Shown: piece by piece, positions 14,947 through 63,584 of the stretch
Layout: each line of letters opens with the position of its first letter
How positions within the stretch are numbered: the stretch's first letter is position 1
Assembly: GCA_000091205.1 (NCBI GenBank)
Contig: AP006494.2
Reading direction: 5' to 3' (one strand)
Length of the DNA: 64,000 nucleotides
Origin: Cyanidioschyzon merolae
Taxonomy: Eukaryota
The notes under the pieces: model-generated
The model's database searches: none
The model's input: the letters and a program-made list of their open reading frames with translations, nothing else
Told to the model about the DNA's origin: nothing
Position numbers and translations under genes: made by a program

Positions 14947-15482
14947 TTGTGCTGCAGAAAGGAGGGCATGCATACAAGTTTATGCTTTGCGCTGAGTCGA
15001 TGCAAGGTTGCTGGTTAGGCGCGTCGTGCCAGCATCCAGATACATTTGTTATCGAGAGCAGATGCTCTGGCGCAAGCCATGCACTGAAACGAAATCGTTG
15101 CCAAACCGTGATCTCCCGTGTGCGTCACCTGTTGTGGTGACACCGTCGGAAATGAGTGCAATCGCGTGAAACTCGTTTCTCTTTCAAGAACGGAATCGCG
15201 TGCCGTTTACGCAGCGCCCACGCGCCTCGCATGCAGCAGTTTCGTCGTCTCCAAAGCGATGGTGAGTCATGCATCACGCTTCACGCGGAATGCAACACAG
15301 CCTGAGCATAACTTGTACCCCGCTGTGGTGTGTCGTGCGCGAAACTGCCTTCACTCACTGACGTCGCGACGAGCAGTCCGTGGTGTGCGTACACGGATCA
15401 TGAGCAAGCCCCAGCTCAGAGTAAAATGGAACAGGTCCACTGAGCTAACTCGTGTATAGACGCTCAAGTTTGTGTCTATTTT

Positions 15483-16112
15483 CACTGCCATGAACACCAG
15501 CATCTGGAAACTATGTCCGCGACTGCTTCCTGTTCCTGTATTGCGCATCACCGGCTTTGACGACGCCGGTCGCGCCAGTCCGCCCGCCTCTATTCTCAAC
15601 AGTCGAAGGATGCTGAAAACAGCGTCCGCGTTCCGATTTCGCCGTTCACCGCTGCTTCCGGCACATCGCATACACACACAAATACGGAGATCTACGCTAG
15701 CCGTGTCATTTCCATCTTGGTTGCATACAGCCTCGGTACGCGCTTCACAGCGCCGACACCGCGCTGTGGTTACCTGCACTCATTCGTTCTCTGCACGTCG
15801 ACCTGCGTCGAAGACCACCCTGTGGCGCGTGAACGCTCGCTTCATCGCTCGGCACACGCCGCTCACGAGTGTAGAACGCTCAGCTCGATACACACCTCGA
15901 TAGCAGCGCCCAGAGCTGCACACACTACAAGTACAGGCCTCCTCTGGGCGATCTGCTACGTGCGTACTCTATCCGCTACAGGTGCAAGCGCACGGTGTTC
16001 GATTCGATAGACAATTCGTGTACTGCGATATTGTCCATGATCAAAGAGGTGATCGGAAATCCAGTCCAGACTGGAGAACAAGTCGACACGTTTCGATCGG
16101 TCTATAGTCCTT
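15483..16112. repeat. dispersed repeat family A, copy 1 (about 630 bp)
   Basis: About 98.6% identical to 27456..28085 in the same orientation (offset 11,973 bp). Identity starts at cactgccatgaacaccagcatctgg and ends at gatcggtctatagtcctt. No TIRs or TSDs seen. No recognisable coding content. Confidence 0.85.
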
Positions 16113-26264: not shown

Positions 26265-27455
26265 ATTGATCGACCTAGGCACTTACAAAGAGGCACAACC
26301 TGTCCGGTTTTAGCCAGGGTCTAGACCCCCCCAGCGCGAGTTCCTATTGTGCTCGAAGTGCGCTCCACAGCAGATATGCCACAAGCAGGTACGCTTTCTG
26401 AATACGGTCGCTGCGATGCCCTGCCGCGCGCTGCCCGCATGGATCACCTTTAGGAAACATCCGGATTCGCAGGTAGAGGCCTTGGGAAGCGTACCAGAAT
26501 ATGTAGCTTACTTTCCGATCTCGCTTTCATTTCATTTTGAATGTAGAATTGCAAGTACAGATTGCGGCCTTGATCTTTCCTAGTCTGCTGACATGACGTG
26601 GCCAAGGACGCATTAGAGAGAAGCTGGCAGAGGAAAATACAGAAAAGGCCTGGCGATCCAGGCTCGTGCAATATACTGATCTCTTGGTCGCACCGTACCG
26701 ACTCCACGAGCGCCGTACTCATCGAAGAAAGCGCTGCAGTCCCCAATGGGTACATTTCGGGTTGGTACAGGCCAGATGTTTCAGTGCTTCCGCAATCTTT
26801 CCACCCGCTGCATGCAATTGATATGGCAGAGACGCAGCTTCCGCTTCGATGTCGTGCGATTCCAGCATCCCGGAATAGACCTATACGAATGCAACGTTTA
26901 CGCATCAGACAAGGTTCCGTCAATGTATATTGAATACTTGCAACGACCAGAAATGCGTTCAACCTGCCATTGCACTGAGAAAGATCTGTGGAAACACAGC
27001 ATCCCCATTTTTTGACTGGATGCGGCAGCGGTCGTGCCTACAAGTTGGCGGCAGAAATCTCCTGAAACGTCTCCATGTAGCCAATGATGCGCCCATGGCT
27101 GGTTCTCCACGAACATCCGCAGTTCCCTGCACTCTGCTCATCATAGACTGCCATTCGGCCGAGTGACCCTTACAGAACCCATCTCGAAGCACCGCAGCTG
27201 CTCATGTAAAATAGGGAGTCTCATAGGCTGCCCGCTGTTTTACTGCATTTCCAAGACGACTCCCTAAACTGTGTAGCTCGTCGCCGTATCACTCCTGGTG
27301 CAGCATTGTCGCCAACGCGTGCACATTTTCTGGCACGAACTGCGTTGGCGTCGCTCCAGCGCTTACTGGAGATTCCGTTGCACCCATGTCCGACTAGAAA
27401 GAGACCGTTCCGAGCAGTATTCTCTGATGTAGACTCTAGACTTCAATTTTCTACT

Positions 27456-28085
27456 CACTGCCATGAACACCAGCATCTGGAAACTATGTCCGCGACTGCT
27501 TCCTGTTCCTGTATTGCGCATCACCGGCTTTGACGACGCCGGTCGCGCCAGTCCGCCCGCCTCTATTCTCAACAGTCGAAGGATGCTGAAAACAGCGTCC
27601 GCGCTCCGATTTCGCCGTTCACCGCTGCTTCCGGCACATCGCATACACACACAAATACGGAGATCTACGCTAGCCGTGTCATTTCCAGCTTGGTTGCATA
27701 CAGCCTCGGTACGCGCTTCACAGCGCCGACACCGCGCTGTGGTTCCCTGCACTCATTCGTTCTCTGCACGTCGACCTGCGTCGAAGACCACCCTGTGGCG
27801 CGTGAACGCTCGCTTCGTCGCTCGGCACACGCCGTTCACGAGTGTAGAATGCTCAGCTCGATACACACCTCGATATCAGCGCCCAGAGCTGCACACACTA
27901 CAAGTACAGGCCTCCTCTGGGCGATCTGCTACGTGCGTACTCTATCCGCTACAGGTGCAAGCGCACGGTGTTCGATTCGATAGACAATTCGTGTACTGCG
28001 ATATTGTCCATGATCAAAGAGGTGATCGGAAATCCAGTCCAGACTGGAGAACAAGTCGACACGTCTTGATCGGTCTATAGTCCTT
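27456..28085. repeat. dispersed repeat family A, copy 2
   Basis: See copy 1. This copy carries an uninterrupted 205-codon ORF (27463..28080). Copy 1 has a stop in that ORF. The ORF is Arg-rich and not protein-like. Confidence 0.85.
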
Positions 28086-31507: not shown

Positions 31508-33433
31508 CTAGCTCGAGACCTCCGCCGAGTCGCCACCGCTGAGCCAGCGCGTGTGCCACCGCCGCCCCGGATCGTCCAGACGCTCGTAGCCGTGCGAGCC
31601 GAAGCAATCCCGCTGGGCCTGAACCAGCTGGCTTGAGCGCAGCACCGCCTGTCGATACGTGTCGTAGTACGAAAGGCTCGCGGTCAGCGCCGGCGCCGGC
31701 ACACCCAGCGATGCCGCCAGCCCGACAACACGCCTCCAGCTCTCGTGGCGACGTCCAATCTCCGCAGCCAGGTCAGCGTCCAGCAGCAGATTCGGCAGGC
31801 TGGGGTCTCGTCGAAAAGCGCCCTCGATCCGCTCAAGCAGCTGTGCCCGAATAATGCAGCCGCCCTTCCAGATGCGCGCAAGCTCCCCGAGATCCAGCGA
31901 CCAGCCCTGCTCGCCGCTCGCTCGCTGCAGCAGACTGAGACCCTGCGCGTAGCTACAGAGCTTGCTGCAGAAGAGTGCGTCCTCAATAGCAGCGATCAAC
32001 GCTCGCTCCGCCGATGCATCCGAACGCGACGTCGACGCCGACGCTCGTACAGAGCCAGACGCTAGGGCGGCGACACGCTCGGGAGCTGTGTCCGGTCCAG
32101 TTTCAGCTACACCGCCAGCGGCTCCGGGTGAGGCACCGGCGGCCGCCAACTCGGAGGCGTGCCCCGTACCCGAGAGCCGCTCGGGTCCGCGGAGCACCCG
32201 CGACGCACGCTCGCGCTCGTCCTTCCGCGCTGAGAGGAAGCGCCCGTCGAGCGCGGCAGCGATGGTCGGCACCGCCACGCCCCGCCGCAGTGCCTCCGTC
32301 ATCGTCCACAGGCCAGTGCCCTTGCTCTCACTCCGGTCGAGGATTTGGTCTACGAGCGCTGGCGCCGACGCTGCCGACGAAGACGTGTCAGGCACGCGTA
32401 GAATGCGCGCGGTAATCTCCACGAGGAAGCTTTGCAGGGCGCCCGCGTTCCACGAGGCAAATACTTCCGCAGCCGCCATCGCATCCAAGCCAACGGCACC
32501 CCGAAGCAGGTCGTATGCCTCGCCGATCAGCTGCATATCGCCGTACTCGATCCCGTTGTGCACCATCTTCACATAGTTCCCCGAGCCGCCCGGCCCAATG
32601 TAGGTAACGCACGGCCCAGAGCCGGGCACCTGCGCCGCAACCTGCTCCAGCAGCGGCGCAAGCTGCTGGTACGCCTCCCGTGAACCGCCCGGCATCAGGG
32701 AAGGCCCGTAGCGCGCACCCTCCTCGCCACCGCTTACGCCCATGCCTACGTACAGGAGGCCGCGTGCCGCGACAGACGCAGCACGTCGCTCCGTATTCTC
32801 GTACCACTCGTTGCCGCCGTCCACGATGATGTCGCCCGGCTCCAGAACCTCAGCCAGCGCCTCGACGGTTGCGTCGACTGCGCTCCCCGCCTTCACCAGC
32901 AGGAATACCCGCCGCGGACGCTTCAGCGAAACCACAAACGACCGCAGGTCCGCAAAGCCGGTAACGCTCCCGCTGGCTGTCGTGTCATCTGCCGCGAGCT
33001 CCCGCTGCGCCCGCTCAACAGTCTCCGCCGTCCGCGCATACGTTCGATTGTACACAGAGACTCGCCAGCCGTGCGACGCTAGGTTCAGTGCAAAGTTCTG
33101 ACCCATGACCGCAAGGCCAATGACACCCGCGTCCGATATTGCGCGACCTGCAGGATGTGACGACGCGCTTTCCCGGACAGCACTCGACGGAGACGAGCCC
33201 TCCGCCGCAGACATGACGGCAGCACCACATGCTTGTGCGCGGCGGCCTCGGAGCAGGCACCAGCGAGCGCTTCGGACCAAGCTCAGGCTCCATGTCGGGT
33301 ACGTACGCCTGGGTGTCCAGGAGTGCGCACGCGGAGGCGCCCAGCGTCCGAAGCGCACCGCAGCGACAGGTGCGGCGGCCCAGCACAGCGCACCGCCACT
33401 GGGACTCCGGCGAGTGCCCGCTGTCGTCGCCAT
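31508..33433 (-). CDS. 6-phosphogluconate dehydrogenase (decarboxylating), with an N-terminal presequence and an Ala/Ser-rich insertion
   Basis: The ORF-track start at 33487 is GTG; ATG is at 33433. Motifs: IGLAVMGQNFALNLASHG, GGNEWYENT, GMGVSGGEEGARYGPSLMPGG, GSGNYVKMVHNGIEYGDMQLIGEAY, GTGLWT, WKGGCIIRA, DCFGSHGYERLD. Confidence 0.9.
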   Translation of the reverse strand: MATTAGTRRSPSGGALCWAAAPVAAVRFGRWAPPRAHSWTPRRTYPTWSLSLVRSARWCLLRGRRAQACGAAVMSAAEGSSPSSAVRESASSHPAGRAISDAGVIGLAVMGQNFALNLASHGWRVSVYNRTYARTAETVERAQRELAADDTTASGSVTGFADLRSFVVSLKRPRRVFLLVKAGSAVDATVEALAEVLEPGDIIVDGGNEWYENTERRAASVAARGLLYVGMGVSGGEEGARYGPSLMPGGSREAYQQLAPLLEQVAAQVPGSGPCVTYIGPGGSGNYVKMVHNGIEYGDMQLIGEAYDLLRGAVGLDAMAAAEVFASWNAGALQSFLVEITARILRVPDTSSSAASAPALVDQILDRSESKGTGLWTMTEALRRGVAVPTIAAALDGRFLSARKDERERASRVLRGPERLSGTGHASELAAAGASPGAAGGVAETGPDTAPERVAALASGSVRASASTSRSDASAERALIAAIEDALFCSKLCSYAQGLSLLQRASGEQGWSLDLGELARIWKGGCIIRAQLLERIEGAFRRDPSLPNLLLDADLAAEIGRRHESWRRVVGLAASLGVPAPALTASLSYYDTYRQAVLRSSQLVQAQRDCFGSHGYERLDDPGRRWHTRWLSGGDSAEVSS

Positions 33434-33777
33434 CCTTGAGGCGATCCACAGGTGGTTTGCGTGACCGAGGGCGGCCGGCCTGTTCACCGGGTGCGCCTCC
33501 TCGGTCTGCCGCGCTCTAGACGGGACAGCGCGCAGCGACTGGCCGTCTGGTGCTGCTTCCGGGACTCCTCAGCTGCCGATCCTGTGCCCCGGCGCGAGCA
33601 CTCGGCGACTTGACGTCTGGTGCTCGCTCAAGTCTCTCACGGTCACTACGACAACACGCACGCTCAAAAGCTGAGCACAGCGGAAAACAAAACCGATCCG
33701 CGATGCACGGGGGTGCTGCAGATCGATGCAGTCCGCGTCACGAGTTCTCGCAGTAGCACGAATACCACCGACAATAA

Positions 33778-33798
33778 CAGCAGCAGCAGCAGCAGCAA
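33778..33798. repeat. (CAG)n trinucleotide microsatellite
   Basis: Direct read: cagcagcagcagcagcagcag. Confidence 0.8.
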
Positions 33799-34876
33799 GC
33801 AACGCAACGTACTCGGTCCACAAACAGCCGCAGTCAGCGACGAATGAGCGGCTCGCTCAGTAGCTCGCAACTGCAGCTCCAGCACGAGTACGGAACGGAT
33901 CGCAGACAGCCGCCACGAGGCCGCAGCGCTACGCACAGCGCGCGACGCACCGTCAAGCGCTATCCTGCGCTGACGGCCGCCGCAGCAACGCAGGCGGATC
34001 GAATGCGCACGGGTATATATATGAATATGGAACCTTAATCATCACTTGCGTTCAAACCATAGCTGGAAACACCGCGTCCCATCTCGAATCGCGAAGTTAA
34101 GCAGCATTGGGCTCTCTGAGTACTGTGATGAGGGATCGCACGGGAAACGGGAGTGACGCAAGTTCGCTTTTGCCACCACGTCGCGCTGACCTGTTCTAAA
34201 GCGCGCATCAGCAGACGCGAGCCGGGTAGTCTGGCGGGGAAGCACTGTGAGGCCGGCTTGCTCCGGAATACACTTGCAACCGGTGGTCCAGATCGACGAC
34301 GATAACGAGTGGGTAACTGCGGAGGCCTGGTTGCACAGAGCGATCTTGCAGCGCTACGAACCGCAACACCTGCCGATATTCTGGAGGAGGTGCGATCGCC
34401 CCCGCACGACGAACCCCGTAGCACCCAGAGGGAGTACGCACCCGCGCTACACCATGAATGCTAAAAAGGGCGGCAGGGCAGGGGCTGTCGCCCCGAACGC
34501 GTATTGCAGACAAACTAGCGCGTCACGTTCATGTGCGTCGCGTTCTAGTCCGTCGCACAGCAACAGGAGCACTGGAAAAGATCATAAGCCAGCATGCTAC
34601 CGTGCAGCGCACTGTACCGCCTTCGCTTTACGTCATACGGAACTAGACAGGAAAGTTGCCACCACGCCAGCCACGACTCCATCGATGCGAGCATCGCGCG
34701 TGCGCACGCGTGCCCGTCGCATCGACCCCTAAGCCGCCGTGTACCGAACACAACTGCCTCCGTTCGTCGCGAATGCGCAGCAACCTTCCCTCTGACACAG
34801 AAAAACACATCGTGTCCATCACAGACGCCGGTGACAAGGCCGCGTATAGCACCAACGAACTCGCCACGAATCCGCA

Positions 34877-37800
34877 TCAGCATTGTTTGCGAGTATCTCG
34901 CGCCACGGTCCATTCCGGGATCGAGGCATTCAACGCCGTCGCCGGGGATGCGCCCAGAGTCGCCGTGCTCGAGAGCGCCTCGCGTCGTGCAACTAAATTC
35001 AAGCGCTCTGCGAAAAGCTCCTTCCGGTAAATCTCTACCTGCTCCCGCTCCCGAAGGAACTCCTCTTCGAGCTGCTCAAGTACTTTCATCTTTTCTTCGA
35101 GTTTCCTCACCTGAGTCTCGATCGCCTGTTCAGTAGCCCGGTGCAGCTCTAGATGCTCAATGGCGGCGAGCTCCGCGGCCCGAGTGGCCGCAGCGCCAAG
35201 CGCCGTTGCCGCAACGGCCTGGATTGCATTCGCATCCGCAAGCGCTTCCGGTGGTGCGTCGCTTTTCATGATCGCTGCCAACGCGGCCCGGGCAGCAGCA
35301 GCAGCGACATCCGGCGAGACGCTGTTCGCGAGAAACGCAATATGCGCCATCAAGGGGTTTCCGGCGTCGGCGAAGAGCGGCGGCTCGTTTCGTTCGGTCT
35401 GCGCCGTCTCGCCAGCTACAGCGGGTACCGCTAAACGACTCAAATCATCCTCGAGAAACGGATCTTCAATGGGTAGACGAATGAATTTGGTGATGCACGC
35501 ATCGCGGGAACGAGTGCCAACGTGCTGAGCAACCGCATCCCAGTCATCACCGTATGCCTCGATTCCTTCGAGAAGCTGCAGCACCTCAACATCAGTCCAG
35601 TCGTCCGTGCTCGGAGCTGTGAGGGTTCCAGTGGCGCTAGCCGCCGACCCCAGCGATAGAACAGGTCTTAATTCGATGAAATCTTTTCCATTGAAGTCCT
35701 CGGGAAACTTGCCCTGATGGTAGCATTCGGGGCACAGGTCCATATCGGCCTTGAGCAAACAGTGGTACCGGCGTTGGGAGCAGTCTCTCCCGCACACGTC
35801 ACACTGGTACTCAATGGCTGCCGCTGCGGCATATAATTCACGGCGCGTTGCCATGGGCGCCAGATGCATGCGCGATTTCGGAATACGCGACCCGTCGTCA
35901 AACAAGAATATGCGAGGAAGTCCGCCCTCAAGACCAGCTGAGCTTGCTGCCAGGCTTCCCGAGCTGGTGGAGATAAGCGTCGCACCGGAACCCGAAAACC
36001 CGCCGCTAACAGTCTGTGGGCGCGTCTCGGGTGCCACTCCGTAGTTAATCAGGCCCCACTGCTCCAGAAAGGCGTGCACACGCATGACGGCACCCACATC
36101 GCCAGCGAGATGCCTCCGAACAGCTGTGCCTGTTAGGTAGCGGGTCGGATCCTGCCGCCACGTGTCAATCATAAAATTTCGGTAAAGCATGTATACTTCG
36201 GGCGTTTTCGAAGCAAATTTCCCAGAGAAAAACTCCGGCAACGCGCGTCGCTCAATGTCGTGAATCGCATCGATGCGAAACCATCGGCTGTGCGCGGGAA
36301 CACGAATCGGCGACTTTTCACCAATCGCCGTGGCAGCAGCCGCAGCCGGAAGCGTTTCCCGCTCCGCGAGGCCACCGAGTGCCTCGGCGACGCGACGCGG
36401 TGCAAGCGATTCTCGATCACGTGGCGCGTGTGCTGCCGGCCCCGGAAGCGCATCCTCTTCGGCTGCCGCAGCGTCATTCCGCTCTTTTCGTCGTTCGCGT
36501 AATGCTTCTCGCTGCTGTGCTAACCTCTTCTGTAGCTGCTCATCCCGCGAAGATGCAGTTACATTGCGCATGCGCAGTGTCGCGTCATCTGGAACTAGCG
36601 GACGCACCGCTGGGCGTGAAATGCGCGGTGCAGCGCCGGCCGCAGCGCTTGGCTGCTCCGCATCGACCGCAGCGCCAGTCTCCGTTGTGAACGTGATCGG
36701 GCCAGCAATATTCGGTGCCGGAACTTGCTCCGCGGGTGCATTGCTCGAGCTTCCCGCGTCCTGGCTCGCTATCGGCGGTGCCAAGCGAACCTTGATCTTC
36801 ATCGGCTCTGCGGATTCCTCTCGGACGGCGCGCACCGTCACCCGTTCTGGCGTGCCGTCTGGCTCCGGCTTCACGGGACTCGGTTCAGCGGATTTTCGTT
36901 TCGACGGCGTCGGTGCTGCGGTCTTCGACTCGGATCCTCGCAGGTGGCCATCGATGCGCGAGGCCGATGGCGGTTTCCACTCATCGACATTGAGCTTCTC
37001 CTCTTCGGGTATTACCTCATAGTCGTTTTCATTGCACCACTCATTGAACTTTTCGCAATCCTCGAGAAATCTTTTCTGCACATGCCATATTTTGCCCTCA
37101 ATCACTCCGGAGAGATTCTCCTCCTCTCCGTGCAGTTCGCCGTCGGGATCTTCTACCTCCTGAGCGGGAATCCATGAATCGTACGAATCGGGAAAGTACC
37201 ACCAGTGCGTCAGTACTTGATTCCCTTTCCTTTTCAGACTCACGCAGTAGTCCTCTGCCTCGGTCTCAGCCTCTGTCGTGCCGGGTGGATCGGGGTACAC
37301 AATATGTGTTGCCTCGCGAGGCGACGAAACGACGGACGCACCATGCTTCCTTGCAATGGCGCTGAGGCGGTCAATCTCCGCCGAACCCAATGCCGGTGCG
37401 AAAAACAACCGCGGCATCTGGAGCTGTTTCCGTTTTATCAGTTCCCGCTCAACTTCTTGGAGCATCTCTAAAAAAACTCCAGTCATATCGGGTTTGTGGA
37501 GATCAAAACGCCGTATTCCACGAGCAACCCTGAACCGAAAACAGCACTCGAGAATCGTACGCAATGAGCCGTGTGCCGAATAGTCGTGAAAGAGACGATT
37601 CGGCAGTTTCGTCATGAAACCCCGAATTTCTGGCGGCTCGACGGAGTTCCGTCCGAGAACCCGCTCTTGAAACTGAAGCAGGTTACCGGTCAGGAGGCTC
37701 AGCGCGCGCGGGGAGACGTCCACAGAGTCGCCGGGTCGAAACCCCAGTTGTTCCGGCGGTTCAGCGTTTAGCTGTGCCGAGATTGCCTCGAACTTCGCAA

Positions 37801-38044
37801 TTTGATGAGGATCCTCGTAGTCTTTCATGGATATATTACAGGACTTTACCCGCTTCCGCCGCGAATCCGCAGGTCTCTGACCTTCAGCTGACGGAAAAGC
37901 AGTGTCTTCCCGCGCATCCGCTGCAGCTCCTGTGCGCACTTCTTCAGACGGGGTAGACGTCGACTTGTTCCCGTCCGGGATGTGTGTTCCGTTGCCTTGC
38001 TGCTCTCGCGCGGTGCGGGAGCGTCTCTTCCGCGGGGGAACCAT
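34877..38044 (-). CDS. SWI/SNF complex subunit SWI3/SMARCC homolog
   Basis: SWIRM domain (IPAHSRWFRIDAIHDIERRALPEFF...YRNFMIDTWRQDPTRYLT...VHAFLEQWGLINY). ZZ zinc finger (YQCDVCGRDCSQRRYHCLLKADMDLCPECYHQGKFPEDF). SANT domain (DDWTDVEVLQLLEGIEAYGDDWDAVAQHVGTRSRDACITKFIRLPIED). C-terminal coiled coil / Leu zipper. The ORF-track start is GTG at 38053; ATG is at 38044. The conserved N-terminal region begins near MKDYEDP (about 37837), so the true start could be there. Confidence 0.85.
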   Translation of the reverse strand: MVPPRKRRSRTAREQQGNGTHIPDGNKSTSTPSEEVRTGAAADAREDTAFPSAEGQRPADSRRKRVKSCNISMKDYEDPHQIAKFEAISAQLNAEPPEQLGFRPGDSVDVSPRALSLLTGNLLQFQERVLGRNSVEPPEIRGFMTKLPNRLFHDYSAHGSLRTILECCFRFRVARGIRRFDLHKPDMTGVFLEMLQEVERELIKRKQLQMPRLFFAPALGSAEIDRLSAIARKHGASVVSSPREATHIVYPDPPGTTEAETEAEDYCVSLKRKGNQVLTHWWYFPDSYDSWIPAQEVEDPDGELHGEEENLSGVIEGKIWHVQKRFLEDCEKFNEWCNENDYEVIPEEEKLNVDEWKPPSASRIDGHLRGSESKTAAPTPSKRKSAEPSPVKPEPDGTPERVTVRAVREESAEPMKIKVRLAPPIASQDAGSSSNAPAEQVPAPNIAGPITFTTETGAAVDAEQPSAAAGAAPRISRPAVRPLVPDDATLRMRNVTASSRDEQLQKRLAQQREALRERRKERNDAAAAEEDALPGPAAHAPRDRESLAPRRVAEALGGLAERETLPAAAAATAIGEKSPIRVPAHSRWFRIDAIHDIERRALPEFFSGKFASKTPEVYMLYRNFMIDTWRQDPTRYLTGTAVRRHLAGDVGAVMRVHAFLEQWGLINYGVAPETRPQTVSGGFSGSGATLISTSSGSLAASSAGLEGGLPRIFLFDDGSRIPKSRMHLAPMATRRELYAAAAAIEYQCDVCGRDCSQRRYHCLLKADMDLCPECYHQGKFPEDFNGKDFIELRPVLSLGSAASATGTLTAPSTDDWTDVEVLQLLEGIEAYGDDWDAVAQHVGTRSRDACITKFIRLPIEDPFLEDDLSRLAVPAVAGETAQTERNEPPLFADAGNPLMAHIAFLANSVSPDVAAAAARAALAAIMKSDAPPEALADANAIQAVAATALGAAATRAAELAAIEHLELHRATEQAIETQVRKLEEKMKVLEQLEEEFLREREQVEIYRKELFAERLNLVARREALSSTATLGASPATALNASIPEWTVARDTRKQC

Positions 38045-38054
38045 GAAAAACACG

Positions 38055-39730
38055 TCACAGAGTTACTAGCTCCACCGAAAGACTTTCAATAGTCGATAGC
38101 TTGAATATCAGTATACAGTAGTGGCGAGCTGCGCGCCCTAGATCATACGTCTCCAACTGATGCGCAGATGCCTCCCTGTCTTTTTTGGACCGGCCATCTA
38201 CTACTGGTTTCAACTTGTTTCCGTAAAATTCCACCTGGAGAGGTTCCCCCACAAAGTTGGCTCTTGTCAACTCTGGAGGCCTTCTTTCCATCACCGCACA
38301 TCTCCTGATATTGATAGCGACATTAAAGTCTCGGTTCACAAACTCCATACGTTTCTTGCCATCATTGGTTGTACTATCCGATGTGATTAGTCCACGATCT
38401 TTCGCCATCCCTTCCGGTGACTGCTTCGTCAGCGCTCCGTACTTTGATATATCCACAGGGCTCCTCTGGCACTTTTCGATCTGCACGCTCTGGAGTGTGC
38501 AACCCAGCTCATGGTGTGTATACGATGTTCGGAACTCATCTACAGGTATCGTAACGAGACGCCTTGCGCACTCCTTGTACGCTCTTGTCGTCGGAGCTGG
38601 TGGACATCCTTTTTGGGTCATCCAGCGCCCTGTTCCGCACGCTACTACGAGCCTCTGACTTTCATCCTCTTTGAAGGCACTCAACTCATTGAAAAAATTC
38701 GCGAATGCACGCGGTTTCCCACAATACAAGTTCATACGCAAACGAGCCCACCGGGGCTTTGCATACTCATTCCACAGTGCATCCCAATGAGCAACGCGAA
38801 CTTCCATGAATTCCTGACAAGCTTGAAAGTCTGCTCCGCGGCTCGTCATCTGGTTCATAGCTTCAAGGTGCTCTTGCATTCCTGCATTTCACGTCTCATT
38901 TTTCCCTCGCATTCAGTATTCCCGACTCTCGGTGATATCCCGCTCGTGAGAGGTTTAACTGATGCATGTCTTTCTGGCATAAATTGCCTTCAATACCATC
39001 CTCCGCAAGCTTGGGTACTGCGATGGTTATGATATTCGTATTCCCAGGGTCCGCGCCATCGACAATGTCGTTCTCATGCACTTCCTGCGTCGTAGGATAC
39101 ACCTGCTTCTTTTCTTCATGCTTCGTCATGGGCGATATCGAAGACGGACCAGTACGATCTGTCTCCAAGCGCCGATTGTGTACATATATGGCTACTCCAT
39201 CGCGTTCGATCATCCCCGTGAGTACATTTCGCTTGTCCTTTTTGTGACGTTTGAAATCGAAGATATTCTTCCAAGTACGTCTCCTGCTTTGTACCGGTGA
39301 ACTCTGTCTTCCTTACATCGAACTCCGGACAGATCTCCTTCATGATGCCGTACAGGATTCTGGAGTCGATCGTCACAACGCGTGACTTGATGTTGCACAA
39401 CGGCAGGACGTTGAAGTGCTTTCCCAGAAGCGCAGCCTTCCGTTTCTCCGACTCTTCATTTTTTCCCGCGCCTACGTCCTTTCCAGTCTTGCGTTCGAGG
39501 TCTCGGTCCAAAAACACGAGATAGTGCAGGATTAGGGTATAGGATCCTTTACCATATTTTTCCATATTTGATATTTTTTCTTGTGAATTCGCCAACCCCA
39601 GTACCGCAAGGTGCTTTCGAATAGCCGCGCGGATCACAGAAGCTTCATTCCTTCTCCTGCGTGACATCTTCCCGTCGACGAGTTCGATCTCTTGTGCATT
39701 CTTACTCTCGTTCGCGACGCCATTGATCAT
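38055..39730 (-). pseudogene. TnpB/Fanzor-like (OMEGA-family) RuvC nuclease gene, broken over three reading frames (39730-39116, 39213-38896, 38879-38055)
   Basis: Fragment 2 carries a RuvC-I-like motif, DIVDGADPGNTNIITIAV (GIDPG-type). Fragment 3 carries the TnpB C-terminal module YKECARRLVTIPVDEFRTSYTHHELGC....KCQRS, which is the bridge plus a degenerate zinc finger, and RuvC-III FVNRDFNVAINIRRC (DRDxNAAxNI-type). Fragment 1 starts at a verified ATG (39730) with an in-frame stop just upstream. The frames shift at about 39120-39210 and about 38880-38896. No convincing intron signals were found, so the gene is either frameshifted (degenerate) or contains unconventional introns. Confidence 0.6.
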
Positions 39731-41710
39731 GGCTCATCTCCCTTTCCGAGCGAGACCCGGGTACAGCGCAAAGACGGCGCGTACCATGAAGCGTTTGGCG
39801 TTCATGGTCATCTGCTTCCTCAGGTTCGTGAGGTACTTCATTGCCCCGTAGGCGTAGACCTACGCGAGTCACCTCTGTATCTAGAACCGCTGCAGCGGTA
39901 TTTGGGGTAATTCTCGTTGAGGGCATGCACTCGCTCATTTTCGCCGACGTTTCCCCTCTACCAACGATCAAGTGGCAAATAAAGGTCCTGCTGAAAAAAA
40001 TCCTCCGGAACCGCGACTGTTTTGATGTCTGTCAGGTCGCGATACATCTATTTCACCAAATGCATTAGTCCTGAAAGAGCCTTTACATTACTCACGGAGT
40101 ATGACACGACACGGTTTCTGATGGCCTCTCGCATCTTTGCCTTGTACGCATTCTTGGTATGTCCAAGAGGACAGACTCTCACCACCGACTCTTCGTACTG
40201 TCGCCTTTCTTGCAGCCTTTGATGTCGGGCTTCCTTCTTTTGCTCCTTCTTCTCGTCCTGTTCTTCTTTGCTTAGCACTATTTTTCATTCTCTCCGTAAG
40301 TCGGCGACACTGTGCCTCCGGGATCCTCCACTTGCTTTTCCATACCTTTCCTTTTTAATTTTTTATGAAAAATAACGCTCGTTAAACGCGTCTGGTAGAA
40401 ACCGCGAAAAATCACTTTCGTTCACTGACATTAGGATTAGAACACAATTGAATTGAAAAACTATACGTTTCCACAACTTTAATGCAAATACAACTTGACC
40501 GGTAGAGCAACAAGACAACGAATGGTCACGAATGCATTTCCCTTCAAAGGCGACATGCGCGTCGTGTCTCGAGGCTGCCAGGTTTGGAGATGCGCGTATC
40601 GAGCGCGCTATATAGAACAAAGAACAGAGACTCACTTGTAACTAGCAACGAGATAACGAGTTCTTTCCCTGTCTACGATCAACGTCAAAAATGGGGAAAA
40701 GATTTCCATATTGTCCAAAATATTCCTCATAGGCGGACGGTCCCGCGAGCCGGACAAGTCTACCAGGCTGGTGCTTCCTGCTCCCCCAGCGGCAGGCGCT
40801 TTCGTGAACTCCGAGCAGCGCGTCCGCAACGCCATTCATTGTGGAATTACAAGTCGGCAGAATGCTTCTGGGCGTGTCGCCCTGGTCGCAGAGGGCTCCT
40901 AATACGCTGCTTCACGCTGCCGCAGGCAGAGGGTCTGTCTGCCCAGGTATCAGCCTCTCAAAATGATATTTAGCCCTGATTCCGTAGCAGATGGAGCACG
41001 CCTCGAGCCGATGCCCTCTGTGGTATAAAAAAGCCGTTCTGGCTCTAAGAACTATCTGCTCCAGCTGTTCAGGCGCAAAGGCGGATACGGAAAGGCAGGC
41101 ACTAGGCACACGATAGGACATAGGAAACGACCAGAATATCCGAGAAGAAATGTAGGTAATGTAACTTGGATGTAGGGGGTTTGATGGATACTTCACCGTG
41201 CACTGAAAAAAAAACACACGAAAAAGTAAGAAAAGAAAAATGCGCTCCATCGGGGAACGCTGGCCTGCGTTTTGTCATCGCATCGCGCCGGCCGCCAGGC
41301 AGGCTCCTGCCCAGCAATCGCGTCCCTGCGCTACTGGCCGCAGCGTTTCGATGCATCGCATCTGTTTCACCTCCGTGCACTGCTGCGGATCTGATGCGCT
41401 CCGCGAGATCGCAGCGCGCAGCCGCCACCGGCGTGCTGGAGCGCGTTATCAAAATTCAAATAGCAGCAGCGGAGGCTCTGCGTACGCTGCTGGCCGTCGT
41501 CGTGCATCAGCGCTGCGCCGTCGCAAACGCTGCCTACGAACCTTGAAGTTGGCTTGTTGTGTGCTTGGTTTCGTCGAGTGGTTTCGTAGGAGTCTCGACA
41601 TTGTTAGGCCCGATATCCGCTCAAGTTTGTACTCGCAAAACGTCAGTTTGTGAAAAAGTTCTTGCTGCATAGCTTCGTATACGAAAAGATATTTGAGAGA
41701 GTTCTGCACC

Positions 41711-43664: not shown

Positions 43665-45194
43665 GGATTCGCTCCAACAACCATTACAGAGCAGACCGTG
43701 TGCCCTAGTGCACGCAAAGTTCCGTCACCCGAACCGCGTCTATGCCAGCGAAACGCATCTAAAGCCCTAGCCCTCAGCGACCTGACACGGCTTCCTTGCT
43801 GACTGCACCTCTACGAAGCGAGCAGTACTCAGTGGTGCGAAGCGCAGTCGACGAGTCAGAGAAGGGACAGCAATGCTGGAACTGGATCCTATTTGAAGCC
43901 ACGGTGAATACAACCGTTCTGTAAGCGTTGTTGCGCGCACGCGTTCTAGTCTTTCAACTCGGTTCTGTGACACCCCAGGGAGATGGAACCGAATGCTATT
44001 CCGCATTGTATGGCAGGAGATCGAAACCACGATGCACAATGCTGTATAGGTCGAAGACGAATTGCCTGTAGCATCTATTCGTTACTGAACAGTGCAAGGG
44101 GGACTACATTCCTTCTTCAGGTCAGTCATACAACAGCACTCAGATGGACGAGGAATACTGAAAGGGAGAAGTGCATGCGCTTCGTACCAAAACCGTTGTT
44201 CTCAAAGAGTGCTTATGGTCAGTGGTATAAAACAAACCATTGAACACCTGACGGAAAGCAAAATCAACGATAGCAGCCACCTCGGATGTCTCTGTCTCTC
44301 AACAGCTTGTTCGTGTAGTCCTGCAAACACTGGAATAACGTCGCAAAAAAAGTCCTAGTTCGATCAAGATCAACTTTCACTGAAATCGCGCCTACAGCAA
44401 CCCTGGAACGTTGTGATCGGTATGAAGCAGAGCAACGTCGGTTTATTTTAGTCGATTAGACTTTCCTCGGGTGAAATGGTTAGAGCGTATACGGGTATTC
44501 GCGAAGCAGATATCCCATTCTATATACGATTGACCTCGAAGAGAACGAGGATTTCATCTGTTCTAACTGTGGTGGATTCATTCGCCTGCCTCGATTTCGC
44601 TCGTAACGAAGGCTCATACAACAGTACCAAACACTCTGTCGAATCGTTGAAGACTTGCCCCTGTCATCTAGTGACGTCCTTCAATTAGGCAACATGGTAT
44701 ATGGCCTCTAGCCTTGGGTTCGGACTTTTGCCGTTTCTGTTGAGGCCGAGCTGCTTTCCATTCGTCCGTACGCTCCGAGGTTCAACTCCATCGAAAGAGC
44801 GTTTTCTATTGTGAAGCGTAATAATCGCTACATCCTGCGAATCGCTGAAGCGTTTCGCAAATTGTGACAACAAGGCATATGTCATCTTTCTTCCGCAAGT
44901 CCTTTTTCCTCCGGGAACCTCCGCACCTCTTGGCATAAACGAGAGCATTCATTTTCAAAAGTAAAAACTCAAGGAAAATGTATAGAAATGTAAGCCGGGG
45001 ATCCTGGCTGTCTGGGGTGCCTGACTGCTGGAAACAAAAGGAACCCATTTCCATGCTCACAGGAACAGGAGAGAACCACGAAAGCACGAGCAGGAGACCA
45101 GACCTCAAAACTTGCCCAAAAGGGGAGACTACGACGAGCCTGTAGTGAACGTCTGCCTTCCTGGTCATACAAAACATCCGTACAAACAAAGGTA

Positions 45195-46322
45195 GCCTGT
45201 TACGCGAGGAACGCTCGCTCCGCTTCCCGCGCCTTGACACATCTCGTCACGCAACGATTCGTACGAGCTGTGGACGAAGGGATGCCAGCTGCTCATGTTT
45301 CTCTTCAGCGTCTCGATCAAACCTGCACGCGACAGCACAAGTGATGCTCGTTGCAGCAGATGCGATGAGCCCTGGTCGTGGAACCTGAGGGTTGCACAGT
45401 CGCCTCCCAGCGTCTGCTGACGAGTGGACGCGTTGGCTAGTTGCTGCGTCGCATCGCTGCTTCAGGAATCCATACGTCTGCAACGCACATGCCAAAACGT
45501 ATCGAGCCTAGCCCAGCAATCGTGTGCAGATCGCTGCGGGGCGCTTCATGAGGCGCACCCTGCCGCCGATGTCCTCGTTGCACCCGGGCCTCACTGGCCC
45601 GAAACAATGCGGAAAGCTAAAAGGGACGCTACACTCTAGATCGTAAAGAAGCGTCGAAATAGCGCTCGCGGATGATCTCGTGGCAGGTGCACACGATACC
45701 GCGCTGCTGTCGCCTCTGACTTTGACTCGACGGAGGCTAGAAGCGAGCAGTCGCCAACTTGCTCGATAAGCTGGAGAAGCGAACGACCGAGGAGTCGCGT
45801 CGATTGTTGCTTGCCTACGCAAACGGACGTGCTGGTGCGTCCGCGTGTCGCACACCAGCGCCCTCGACGGGAGCGTCCAGCGAGTACACAGGGATCGCAG
45901 CTGGGCGATTTCCCTGCAAGCGTTCGCGACGATACGGAAGCATCACGAGCGGGTGTGCGCAGCGATGCTCGCCGAGAAGCCAATCGTGAAACAGAGCCAG
46001 CTGCACGAGATGGTGCACGGTACGCTGGGCGGGCGCCAGACTGCGAGGGAATCAAAGGCGGGCCTCCCTGTACAGTGCGAGTCGACGAGCAACAACGCAG
46101 ACAGGCGCTCGCTGCACCGAGACCCGAACGCCTCGATCAGCATATGGACGAGTCACGTGCTTCCTGCGCGTCCAGCGGCGTTGTGTGGAACCATTCTTTG
46201 AGGTGATCGTTCCGTACACAGTCTAGACATTGTGCTGAAACGCTCAAGTCTATCGATGAGGAGAAATCGATTGCCAACAGAGAGAGCACGGAATGACCCA
46301 TCGGGGGCAGGGCGCTGGTACG
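45195..46322. repeat. dispersed repeat family B, copy 1 (about 1.13 kb)
   Basis: About 99% identical to 55029..56157 in the same orientation (offset 9,834 bp). At least six ORF-track peptides are duplicated verbatim (for example 45247..45495 = 55082..55330). Starts at gcctgttacgcgaggaacgctcgc and ends at ggcgctggtacgg. No recognisable protein domain. Confidence 0.85.
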
Positions 46323-46694
46323 GTACGCGTCGACCATGCATCAAACCTGGACCAACATGGACATATACATACCTGGAACAATATCCTACCCTATCCGTGA
46401 ACGATCATCGTGTCCCAGTATTCGACATTCATGCATATACCGTAAAACTGCACGCTTGGATAGTGCCTTTGGCCTTCAATCCATGCAAGCATCGGAACGG
46501 CATCCAGCGAGAGCTCAAGATGGCGCCTCACGTGCAAAGCACGAAGGACTGCAATGCGGACAGCAGGCTGGGCGCTGTCCACCGCGCGTTCCTGCCAGCT
46601 GCGCAAGCGCCGCCATCGGCTCGAGCTGCAATCTCCACACACGTGCGCGTACCGTAGCGCTGGAAAATGTTCGGTCAGTGTTCTGGGCGCCGCT

Positions 46695-55028: not shown

Positions 55029-56157
55029 AGCCTGTTACGCGAGGAACGCTCGCTCCGCTTCCCGTGCCCTGACACATCTCGTCACGCAACGATTCGTACG
55101 AGCTGTGGACGCAGGGATGCCAGCTGTTCATGTTTCTCTTCAGCGTCTCGATCAAACCTGCACGCGACAGCACAAGTGATGCTCGTTGCAGCAGATGCGA
55201 TGAGCCCTGGTCGTGGAACCTGAGGGTTGCACAGTCGCCTCCCAGCGTCTGCTGACGAGTGGACGCGTTGGCTAGTTGCTGCGTCGCATCGCTGCTTCAG
55301 GAATCCATACGTCTGCAACGCACATGCCAAAACGTATCGAGCCTAGCCCAGCAATCGTGTGCAGATCGCTGCGGGGCGCTTCATGAGGCGCACCCTGCCG
55401 CCGATGTCCTCGTTGCACCCGGGCCTCACTGGCCCGAAACAATGCGGAAAGCTAAAAGGGACGCTACACTCTAGATCGTAAAGAAGCGTCGAAATAGCGC
55501 TCGCGGATGATCTCGTGGCAGGTGCACACGATACCGCGCTGCTGTCGCCTCTGACTTTGACTCGACGGAGGCTAGAAGCGAGCAGTCGCCAACTTGCTCG
55601 ATAAGCTGGAGAAGCGATTGACCGAGGAGTCGCGTCGATTGGTGCTTGCCTACGCAAACGGACGTGCTGGTGCGTCCGCGTGTCGCACACCAGCGCCCTC
55701 GACGGGAGCGTCCAGCGAGTACACAGGGATCGCAGCTGGGCGATTTCCCTGCACGCGTTCGCGACGATACGGAAGCATCACGAGCGGGTGTGCGCAGCGA
55801 TGCTCGCCGAGAAGCCAATCGTGAAACAGAGCCAGCTGCACGAGATGGTGCACGGTACGCTGGGCGGGCGCCAGACTGCGAGGGAATCAAAGGCGGGCCT
55901 CCCTGTACAGTGCGAGTCGACGAGCAACAACGCAGGCAGGCGCTCGCTGCACCGAGACCCGAACGCCTCGATCAGCATATGGACGAGTCACGTGCTTCCT
56001 GCGCGTCCAGCGGCGATGTGTGGAACCATTCTTTGAGGTGATCGTTCCGTACACAGTCTAGACATTGTGCTGAAACGCTCAAGTCTATCGATGAGGAGAA
56101 ATCGATTGCCAACAGAGAGAGCACGGAATGACCCATCGGGAGCAGGGCGCTGGTACG
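55029..56157. repeat. dispersed repeat family B, copy 2
   Basis: See copy 1. About 10 mismatches over about 1.13 kb. Confidence 0.85.
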
Positions 56158-56681
56158 GGCCGAGTCAGCAATCCACCAAGTCTAAAGCATCTTATATACA
56201 CTCCAGGACCCATTCTTTTAGGGCATTGCCGAACGATAATTATCTTGCTCGATTATGGAACCACACCGACTATACTCGAGGCACCCGCGGTGCATCATTG
56301 TGCTCTACCACTAGGTGCCGCGTTGATTGCACATGCTGCATCGCGATGCTCGTGATTCCATGAACGAGGCCCCGCTCCAAAGCGACCTTCGCAGCGTCGC
56401 CTCAGAGAGCCGCTACCGCGCGCTAAAGCATGCCGACACCTATCGTTCAACGCGGGCTCCCTGACCACCACCATGTCAACGTTCCGTCCAAGAACACTCG
56501 TACGCTGAACAAGTCTCGGGCATTGGCGCACGATCTATGTCCTTCTTGTACTGGTTTGTACAGATAGCGGACGTTGATTGCTTGCGCACTGACGCGTTTG
56601 CGTCACCGAGATTCCACTATCATCGTTTTTAGTCTACGATGCGGTGTTCTCTGGCTTCACGGGTGTTGCAGGTCTAGGGCT

Positions 56682-60694: not shown

Positions 60695-63584
60695 CCTTTA
60701 TGAACGCCAAGGCAGTTTCGGCACAGCGACTTGCTTGAGGGCGCGTGCGCGCGCAGTGCACCACGGAGACGCTGCGTTGACGTTTGCGCTAGACGAATGC
60801 ATCTCTGAAGGCTCAACGGGGCTTCAATTTGTTCTGGAGCTTACGAAAGGTGGGAGATTATCGCGGATTATAACGTACGTTGACGCAGATCCAGGTGTTA
60901 GCGCTACTGGAAGCTTGTACCACGGATCAAGGGACATACAGACTGGTGTTCGAGGTGCTGTGATCGTTTCCCTATTCTTCAGTTGCTTTGCGCTATACCC
61001 GTGGAATCGCGGTTCGTTTCAGCGATCTGACGTCCGGAAAAGTCTGGTACTAGCGGTTGGGGAACAACGTCTGAGGGTCAGGAGCGTCTGGCAGCACCGG
61101 CAGAGAACCATTGAGCTCTTCCGGTGTTACGGGTTGCTTTTGCGTGTTTTGGAAGGCTGTATAGGCTTGCGGACCCTCTCACCCACACCCAGACGAGGTC
61201 AGGTTAGAGGTGCTGGGCAGCGTTGTCGTGGCGAATACCAAAGTGTATGAACAGGTTCAGTCGGCTGTGCGCCGCACGATACCGAAGCGGATCGGAACGA
61301 GCGTGTTTGCAGCTACTGGCGCCCGAGCGCTTGGAATGAAGCAGCACTTGGAGCACAGTTCGTGACCTTGAACGACGCATCTGGCACCCTTTTGAGCTGC
61401 GAAGGCCAACTGGGGCTTGCAAAGATGGATCGGGACGAGATATCATGGGTCGAGTACTTCAGCATGTCGAGCAACAAGACACCTATTGTTTCAGTATGCG
61501 ATCGGGGCACGGGTGATAGAAGCGAAGCTTTCGCGGGACAAGTGTCATTGCGGAGCAACGCTTCTTTCTGCGCATTGCGGCCATTGCCCAGGTGTGCACG
61601 GCGCCCAGGTCAGTGCTGTCCACGCGCAGCTTTTTTTGCTGGTACGTCTGCACTTCCAGTGCGCTCTTCGGGCTTTTCTCTTGTGGAATGCGGTTCCTTT
61701 CTGGTATCGTGGCTGGGCAGGCGCCCATGGAAGGCAAACAGATGCCGGTTTGCTTTATTTGCGAAACACGAGCGAAACTTTCCAGACGCATTCCAGAGCG
61801 GGGAGCGCCGAAGCCTCAACCGCCAAAAAACGCCAGCCGCTGGATTGAAAGGTGCACTGTCGGACCTGTTGCATCGGGTTCCGAACCTGCTGCCTGCCAG
61901 GGACCGGGATCTGCGGTCCGATCTGGTGTCATGTCTCCAGCGTCTAGGCCGTGTAAGTCTGCTTTCATTCTTGCTTCTCTTTATAGACGCGTATTTGTCG
62001 CTCGTCGTGTTCAGTATAGGCTTGACGAGCACTGCGCTCTTCATCGTATTCCCGGGCACGGAGGAACGGCTTCGTACTCGCACCAGAAAGGCACTTGCAC
62101 AAGTCGGCTCAAAGATATGCGCATCTGCCGGGTCGCTTGGGCGGCGGTGTCGTACTGCTCTTCTAGATCAACTGCGCAAGTTACTCTAGCGCTACCGGGC
62201 AAGCAAGTCACGGTTTATGCCAAATGGCGCCCTGCGGTGATCGCTCATGCGCAATTCAGGCGGTTCGGCAACCAGGCGTAAAATCAGCAGCGGGATTGCA
62301 TGCCTTGCCGCATATATTCATCTGGTAGCGCTTTATGTGAGCAGAGCGGCACCGGCTTCCAAGCAAGTCATCCAGACAGATGTTCTCTTATATTCAGGAT
62401 CTTTCGCGCTATCCAAGGAATCCCCGATAGCGCAACGGCCATCAACATCCGGCAGAGTGTTCATCGTTTCGCGCCATAACTTCAAGCATCCATCACCGAT
62501 ACTTCTCGTTGGAGACCGTCGTCCGTTTGTCCGACAATGCGGATGGCGCATGTCGGCCGCCAGCGCCAACTGCGGTGCCCAGAGTTCCGGAGCGGTCGGA
62601 CGGAAAACGCTTTTGAGCACGAAGCGTGCCCTGGCAATGTCGCCTGTTTCTCAACCCGCCTGCATCAGCGCTGTTCGTACCGTTCACTGAAAGCGTAGCC
62701 ATCCATTCTATGTTTACAGCGGATGGATGTACATTGCCCGCGATTTGAGAGGAAACGCAAACCCACTGAACGCGACATCTTTTGCGCGTATTTCCCCTAC
62801 CTGATTCAAAGTGCTTGCAGGACGATGCCCATATCCGAATAAAATGCAACGGATCCTCCAGCTGGGGCGCGCACGTTATAGTTTGTGACTCTTCCCATTT
62901 TCATCAGCACCAGCTTTTGCAGGCTTTTTCTACGACTGCTTCCTTATCTTCTCTGTTATCTCCGCCTGCAAATAAGCGGGTGTCTACTCAATTTCCAACT
63001 CCGTTGTCAGCAGTCGCAGGATGTTGATGTCAGCGATCATCGACAGATTACGCCGATTCGGACTGCTGTCTACGCATTTGATGCACAGAGGCTGATTTTG
63101 ATCTACGGTTCGCTTGCAATTTTCATCTTTTTCATACACAGCCGCGATCCACCATTTCCAATTGGTGAACCTCGGCTGCGCTCAGGCGTTCTCAAATGTT
63201 TACGATACGCCCGCCTCCGAGAGCCGCACAGTGACGCACAAATGCTTACTCGATCGCTCCGTTATGCCCGTGACGGGTACCGTAGGCTTCATTCGATGCC
63301 TTCTTCCACGTTCACGCCCAATGCCGTCCCCTTCGATAACGTCATTCTTCTGGGCAATGCTTCTTCGAGTATGCTGTCCGCTGCACGAGCAAGCGCACGC
63401 TGTCTCATTCGAAACTCGGTATGCGATTTGCACAACTATCGGAAACTGTACTGCAGTGTCTCCTTCAGCAAGATGTCACATGATTCTTTTGGACAAAAGG
63501 CCCTCGCTGCGCATGAAGCGCTTGCGTGCTAGCTTTTCTCTTCCGACAAGCATGCACTGATTCGAAAAATAAGATTCTTTAAAA

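Follow-up and report, generated by a model that had tools for sequence, protein, structure and literature searches.

Fanzor1 proteins are TnpB-like RuvC nucleases of eukaryotes, and one Fanzor1 family, CMe-1 with its element CMe-1A, has been described from Cyanidioschyzon merolae, a red alga (Bao and Jurka 2013, Mobile DNA 4:12; PMC3627910). CMe-1A is present in about 150 copies, each approximately 80% identical to a consensus of about 3 kb, and some copies are still intact; the element lacks terminal inverted repeats, its target-site duplications were undetermined and its classification unknown in that report, and another element, TE-N2_CMe, matches its 5′ 635 bp at 95% identity (PMC3627910). 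Here we analyse a stretch of 64,000 nucleotides from C. merolae chromosome 12 (contig AP006494.2 of assembly GCA_000091205.1), referred to below as the window, in which three minus-strand open reading frames (ORFs) at 38055–39730 had been attributed, from the bare sequence, to a broken Fanzor/TnpB-like RuvC nuclease gene. Our results support the view that the locus is the remnant of a Fanzor1 gene in a red-algal nuclear genome, and the ORFs are almost certainly fragments of one old, dead transposable-element copy of the family published as CMe-1A; the sections below establish its identity, its family, its decay and its lineage-specific presence.

Comparison with described systems

The element in the window and CMe-1A share their host organism, a Fanzor1 protein and a length of about 3 kb that includes a 5′ non-coding module of roughly 0.6 kb (~570–650 bp), and in both cases the copies are ~20–30% diverged and mostly decayed, with some intact relatives. 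No feature was found in which the two differ, the comparison being one of descriptions rather than of consensus alignment. The original prediction had raised the possibility of a Fanzor lineage in a red-alga-like genome: the red alga and the Fanzor both proved right, whilst the novelty did not. The recognition was correct but ordinary, because the CMe-1A family was described in 2013 (PMC3627910); the repeat family was already known and the genome is well studied.

Beyond C. merolae, the closest described proteins are the characterised Fanzor1 nucleases SpuFz1 (PDB 8gkh, 9ceu), PpFz (9cf0) and GtFz (9cer). These match the clade to which the window copy belongs over the full length of the fold (template modelling (TM) scores of 0.54–0.71) and share with it the DPG motif, a replaced canonical glutamate, an alternative glutamate within (L/I/V)DE(F/Y)(R/K)TS and the NRD motif. 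They differ in that sequence identity to the clade is only 11–16%, and in that the window copy is a pseudogene, with the guide RNA and activity of its clade being predicted. More distant are bacterial TnpB (IS200/IS605, IS607) and Cas12f, which have a single RuvC nuclease fold in common with the clade. The clade protein is much larger than these, with a long N-terminal extension and a rearranged catalytic glutamate, and the element is eukaryotic, nuclear, multi-copy and without TnpA. A structured region over the 3′ end of the gene would lie where a guide RNA is expected, and a point of likeness is that one relative matches the Cas12f1-like TNB domain PF07282, though weakly and below threshold (E = 0.0066).

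Homology and fold

The three minus-strand ORFs lie at 39116–39730 (204 aa), 38896–39213 (105 aa) and 38055–38879 (274 aa), as had been reported, and the four peptides quoted from them (VDGADPGNTNIITIA, QRLVVACGTGRW, YKECARRLVTIPVDEFRTSYT and FVNRDFNVAINI) are all present. A frame-repaired translation of 562 aa has 147 relatives (best E = 8e-210; 59–67% identity), some of them intact proteins of 590–750 aa. From these we built an alignment of 36 full-length relatives (A1), the basis of both a sequence profile and an AlphaFold2 model. Compared with 177,635 distinct PDB sequences, the A1 profile gave only three matches, all Fanzor1:

PpFz of Parasitella parasitica, 9cf0: E = 7.7e-16
SpuFz of Spizellomyces punctatus, 8gkh: E = 1.3e-9
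GtFz of Guillardia theta, 9cer: E = 0.005

Fold comparison was made on an intact relative, P0070, rather than on the broken window copy. Its AlphaFold2 model (predicted local distance difference test score 87.5, predicted TM score 0.81) was compared with the PDB using Foldseek, and the best seven matches are all Fanzor1 (E = 1e-17 to 5.5e-16), with alignments spanning 675–805 columns, that is, the full length of the protein including the REC, WED and RuvC regions. Cas12f and other Cas12 proteins come next, at E values of ~1e-4 and TM scores of only ~0.2. The resemblance of the locus to Fanzor1 is far above chance, and the initial call of a Fanzor/TnpB-like RuvC nuclease is borne out by profile and fold searches that place the family within Fanzor1. 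Many of the relatives (P0001–P0120, A1) carry the label PF26935 (DUF8286), a domain without assigned function; DUF8286 therefore covers part of a Fanzor1 protein.

Catalytic motifs

One account of Fanzor proteins reports that the canonical RuvC-II glutamate is replaced by glycine or proline and that an alternative glutamate lies ~45 residues downstream (PMC10530073); the rearranged catalytic motif has also been defined by a regular expression (PMC10711439). The corresponding positions at the locus are:

39049–39051, minus strand: RuvC-I catalytic Asp codon (GADPGNTNI), retained; D398-P399-G400 invariant in A1
38622–38648, minus strand: VVACGTGRW, against VVAYGAG in the family; the canonical RuvC-II position lacks Glu
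38535–38537, minus strand: relocated RuvC-II Glu codon in VDEFRTS, retained; E569 invariant in A1
38328–38330, minus strand: RuvC-III catalytic Asp codon (NRDFNVAINI), retained; R635 and D636 invariant in A1

D398-P399-G400 align to the DPG/DPN of PpFz, SpuFz and GtFz, the E569 motif to IDEFRTS of PpFz and LDEYKTS of SpuFz, and R635/D636 to the NRD of PpFz and SpuFz. The Fanzor-type triad (the DPG aspartate, the relocated glutamate upstream of the TS motif and the RD aspartate) is thus complete in the window copy, where all three codons are found. The absence of a canonical RuvC-II glutamate had been remarked on from the sequence alone; it matches the Fanzor rearrangement, the alternative glutamate being the one in VDEFRTS.

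Just upstream of the DPG motif lies a variable-number tandem repeat of ~25 aa (KHEE.K....TQEV.DND..VD), with one unit in the window copy (39051–39127) and four in the relative P0004 (locus L002, 11146–11449).

Decay of the coding sequence

The recognisable coding remains were delimited by tblastn with intact relatives and by three-frame translation of 40700–37950. Residues 1–752 of P0004 and 23–675 of P0070 are tiled in frames -2, -1, -2 and -3, with successive segments 0–8 nt apart and nothing inserted where the frame changes. The remains and the lesions within them are:

38180–40278, minus strand: Fanzor1 pseudogene, all recognisable coding remains, in three frames
40048–40050, minus strand: in-path stop TAG, HLVK*MYRD against HLEREMYRD in P0004
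39951–39983, minus strand: short out-of-frame stretch, FICHLIVGRGE against the family's FIRQLTLGTEE, implying a pair of frameshifts
39860–39867, minus strand: frameshift, from ...SRYRGD to VYAYGAMKY..., seen by tblastn
39734–39736, minus strand: stop TGA replacing a conserved Trp, KGR*AMING against NGKWAIING
39274, minus strand: one-base frameshift, from ...KQETY to WKNIFDFKR...
38889–38905, minus strand: frameshift near 38903–38905, then TGA at 38889–38891 replacing Trp, KNET*NAG against IETWNSG

At 39860–39867 the frame -2 segment ends at 39868 and the frame -1 segment starts at 39859, with two query residues between them. The weakest of the lesion calls is that at 39951–39983, where the comparison was with P0004 and with FIRQLLLGT in the A1 consensus. 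The tryptophan replaced by TGA at 38889–38891 is W451, nearly invariant in A1. In total there are approximately five frameshifts and three in-path stops, two of the latter at family-invariant tryptophans, rather than the two frame breaks first described. The 204-aa ORF, taken originally for the N-terminal piece, is instead a middle piece, with homology to intact relatives extending upstream to 40278, and the tail of the 274-aa ORF beyond ~38180 is the non-coding end of the element, not protein. A full-length product cannot be encoded by the window copy, though the three catalytic codons survive.

The broken frame had been put down either to decay or to introns, and the first of these holds. 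Were the frame changes spliceosomal introns, as acquired by the Fanzor genes of other eukaryotes, the gene could still be functional; the literature does record introns in the Fanzor genes of some eukaryotes (PMC10530073). The window copy, moreover, still encodes the three catalytic residues. Against this, the tblastn segments abut within 0–8 nt and leave no intron-sized insert, the stops at 39734–39736, 38889–38891 and 40048–40050 fall at aligned conserved residues, and C. merolae has very few introns. With stops standing in place of conserved residues and junctions that hold no extra sequence, we regard the intron explanation as effectively refuted and highly improbable.

Comparison with other strains points in the same direction. 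The insertion recurs in metagenome contigs from closely related environmental strains (L075 and L076; 99.1–99.5% identical), where the gene calls are likewise of 204, 77 and 274 aa. When strain 10D is compared with one of these strains, differences amount to 12.9 per kb in the element and to 3.5 per kb in the coding sequence of the neighbouring SWI3 gene, a 3.7-fold excess that also tells against a functional, intron-containing gene; 9 of the 11 SWI3 differences are at third codon positions, and the two strains differ by a one-base indel at 40139 in the element. This is the pattern of an unconstrained sequence drifting neutrally. The same contigs bear on the suggestion that the gene is really intact and that its breaks arose through errors of sequencing or assembly. 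Frameshifts are a frequent artefact of draft assemblies, though nothing specific to this locus favours such an origin. Assembly error is excluded because independent contigs (L075, L076) carry the same insertion with identical fragments and share the stops, and 99.9% identity is seen over the 3′ end in a further contig, L001; we consider the chance of it negligible. The locus is, then, a genuinely decayed Fanzor1 copy.

Extent and modules of the element

Both the coding remains and the element are larger than the 38055–39730 first noted. The element and its variable 5′ part are:

38070–41266, minus strand: whole element copy of CMe-1A type, ~3.2 kb, both ends approximate, from DNA homology
40612–41266, minus strand: 5′ non-coding module, common to only some copies

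At the DNA level the element is 71–84% identical to more than 70 loci encoding related proteins. Scanning of metagenome contigs gave 71 distinct loci with relatives and with differing flanks which, together with three further relics in the window, mark a multi-copy mobile element. Alignment of the window with the metagenome loci by blastn defines a common core from ~40612 to 38109–38116, with a 3′ limit that is near-constant across loci; in 3′-end alignments weak similarity continues for ~40 bases more, to ~38070, where the relatives have a terminal hairpin, and we therefore place the element at ~3.2 kb (38070–41266). The 5′ limit lies at 41177–41266 in loci with the same 5′ module, and other loci bear different 5′ modules. 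From its size and position, 40612–41266 would be the TE-N2_CMe-like 5′ part of CMe-1A. No terminal inverted repeats were noticed in the end alignments, no search for them with a repeat tool having been made, and a blastn search of the window revealed neither another copy of the element nor another instance of its 5′ module.

The outermost ~270 bp of the 5′ module (40990–41266) recur in inverted orientation in other loci, 20–75 bp upstream of the element core, and the same sequence is also found downstream of some elements; it could represent a small mobile unit in its own right or a promoter module that several loci have in common. The loci concerned are:

L015 1367–1628; L017 659–831; L021 745–1023; L024 2323–2586; L032 2376–2646

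The further relics in the window are older and were found at the protein level, by tblastn, not by blastn. One, at 4437–6048 on the minus strand, is more diverged, with several stops and frame changes, and matches P0070 residues 51–193, 232–467 and 638–675 at 28–47% identity. The others lie within a 1151-bp repeat present at 45194–46344 and 55029–56179 (plus strand; 98.3% identity), each copy of which holds a decayed Fanzor1 C-terminal remnant with stops (45681–46243 and 55516–56078, by tblastn). The 45194–46344 copy sits in a 2.9-kb intergenic region that is ~320 bp long in Cyanidiococcus.

Insertion site

The insertion lies between a conserved 258-aa gene and a SWI3/SMARCC gene, which bears out the suggestion of a mobile element inserted beside housekeeping genes. 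The neighbouring gene, and the window genes identified by exact sequence (six of the eight looked up) in strain 10D, are:

34877–38044, minus strand: SWI3/SMARCC gene, 1055 aa, with SWIRM, ZZ and SANT domains, immediately downstream of the relic
Window genes of strain 10D: BAM80674, BAM80678, BAM80683 (SWI3), BAM80685 (CML064C), BAM80687, BAM80690 (CML069C)

Gene order (PhoH-like, ATE, CML064C-like, a 252-aa gene, SWI3) is kept in Cyanidiococcus yangmingshanensis and two related assemblies. At the orthologous 1.5-kb intergenic region of Cyanidiococcus yangmingshanensis there is no Fanzor homology at the protein level, and the insertion therefore appears to be specific to the C. merolae lineage or to have been lost in the sister lineage. 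Intergenic DNA of Cyanidiococcus is too diverged for mapping of the junctions at base level, only a 70-bp block aligning (window 41392–41461, outside the element).

The 3′ end of the element lies ~25–65 bp upstream of the SWI3 start codon (ATG at 38044) and on the same strand, so that the promoter or 5′ untranslated region (UTR) of SWI3 must overlap the 3′ end of the relic. This invites the idea that the relic has been co-opted, either with its 3′ end serving as SWI3 promoter or 5′ UTR or with the 274-aa ORF expressed as a truncated protein, a suggestion compatible with its being a dead Fanzor1 copy. Besides the shared orientation and close spacing, the insertion has been kept in all C. merolae-like strains sampled. 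Divergence is nonetheless high and spread along the element, its 3′ part included, and the 274-aa ORF could not be a nuclease alone because RuvC-I is missing from it. Co-option is accordingly an unlikely addition to the account of the locus as a decaying transposon relic.

Structure at the 3′ end and a proposed mechanism

The last ~140 nt are the best-conserved DNA of the element, and correspond to the following feature:

38070–38210, minus strand: 3′ end region, candidate guide-RNA scaffold and terminal hairpin in relatives, degenerate in the window copy; function proposed by analogy

Predicted folds have energies of -50 to -73 kcal/mol in relatives, where they form a long stem-loop domain and a terminal hairpin, against -39 in the window copy. 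An uninterrupted terminal stem of at least 10 bp is found at the same position in 49% of 41 non-redundant copies and in 2.9% of dinucleotide shuffles. The sequence of the hairpin varies while pairing is kept: there are at least four unrelated stem sequences among the copies, and changes in the terminal helix occur on both sides in 9 of 10 pairs. Support for the whole hand-specified structure, derived from a single copy, is weak, with pairing in 74% of cells as against 33–56% in slid controls. Minimum free energy z-scores for 70-nt 3′ segments are modest (median -1.1), the direct test of stem length being clearer, and an Rfam scan of the whole window gave nothing within the element. The terminal hairpin is the better-supported part of the 3′ structure and, with less certainty, most metagenomic copies appear to end in one; it may work within an RNA or mark the end of the element at the DNA level.

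By analogy with characterised systems, an intact element would encode a Fanzor1 of ~600–750 aa, an RNA-guided RuvC nuclease with the aspartate of DPG, the relocated glutamate of VDEFRTS and the aspartate of NRD as its catalytic residues, and may in addition specify a structured RNA that overlaps the gene's 3′ end. This putative RNA would have a scaffold ending at the element boundary, with a 3′ extension into the flank serving as the guide, and the guide RNA would then direct cleavage of element-free sites, helping the element to persist. In the window copy the gene is broken and the 3′ hairpin is eroded, so that nothing functional would be expected from it.

Weighing the assignment

A number of observations weigh against the assignment set out above. 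The individual ORF fragments had no matches in Pfam, NCBIfam or the PDB (phmmer), and the repaired protein had none in Pfam; because the single-fragment searches came back empty, family membership depends on the profile and fold comparisons made through relatives. The window copy is placed in CMe-1A by organism, length, copy behaviour and protein type, not by consensus alignment, and the nuclease activity of the clade is predicted. For the 3′ end, RNAalifold found essentially no consensus pairs in alignments of 310 nt and 140 nt, and the covariation score of a hand-specified structure, a weak one, was reached by 37 of 500 shuffles.

To these must be added the zinc finger. A C4 zinc finger was listed by Bao and Jurka (2013) among the strictly conserved Fanzor/TnpB motifs (PMC3627910), and one had been proposed in the 274-aa ORF; the CxxC pairs on which it would depend are kept neither in the window copy nor in the family consensus. 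SpuFz has C-P-R-C and C-T-N-P-N-C where the clade has YTHHE and LLW.SST, and PpFz, too, carries CxxC pairs at these positions. Between the TS motif and RD, the position of the finger (OrfB_Zn_ribbon), A1 has no cysteine conserved at any of the four positions, the consensus being RTSKxxHED...RGLLWxSST, and PF07282 is sub-threshold or absent in the window proteins and relatives tested. Since its remaining features all assign the clade to Fanzor1, we read it as a probable sub-lineage without the zinc finger in preference to a non-member. Reports of zinc-finger loss in Fanzor1 were sought in the literature and none was found, and the lack of conserved cysteines in the family is a less certain observation, to be treated as a lead.

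Members of the clade come from C. merolae and from Cyanidiococcus-like algae of hot springs, with more distant ones, at ~30% identity, in metagenomes. That it represents a zinc-finger-less Fanzor1 lineage still active in thermoacidophilic red algae, with the hairpin either closing the guide RNA as its final stem or acting as a DNA signal for single-strand (HUH/Helitron-like) mobilisation, is a doubtful proposal.

Other features of the window

Several further features were recorded:

15482–16112 and 27455–28085: 631-bp dispersed repeat in two intergenic regions, 98.6% identity
22305–22578: 137-bp unit duplicated in tandem, the two copies 94.9% identical
34044–34164, plus strand: 5S rRNA gene (RF00001, 94.3 bits), just past the 3′ end of SWI3 and on the opposite strand
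32001–34000: stretch of high G+C (0.67 against 0.50–0.59 elsewhere), overlapping a 659-aa ORF at 31508–33487 on the minus strand
62837–63129: 68–70% identity to L002 17541–17762 and L003 2954–3151, at unrelated positions

The 631-bp repeat was considered as a TE-N2-like 5′ module and rejected, having no relation to the 5′ module that the Fanzor element carries; it is absent from the fetched metagenome loci. The sequence at 62837–63129 probably belongs to a different repeat family.

Significance

The locus itself is of little consequence, being the fossil of a transposon whose family has already been published. For annotation, 38070–41266 should be masked as a repeat/pseudogene and not searched for genes. 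The observations on the family (the missing zinc finger, the hairpin at the 3′ end, the modular make-up of the 5′ ends and the intact hot-spring copies) are leads only; among them, the intact copies in hot-spring metagenomes would be Fanzor1 proteins from hot, acidic habitats that do without the usual zinc finger, a lead for tool building rather than a result. For C. merolae, the relic is a dated, lineage-specific insertion that every C. merolae-like strain sampled carries and that the syntenic site of Cyanidiococcus lacks; in a genome that is very compact, it landed nearly at the start codon of SWI3.

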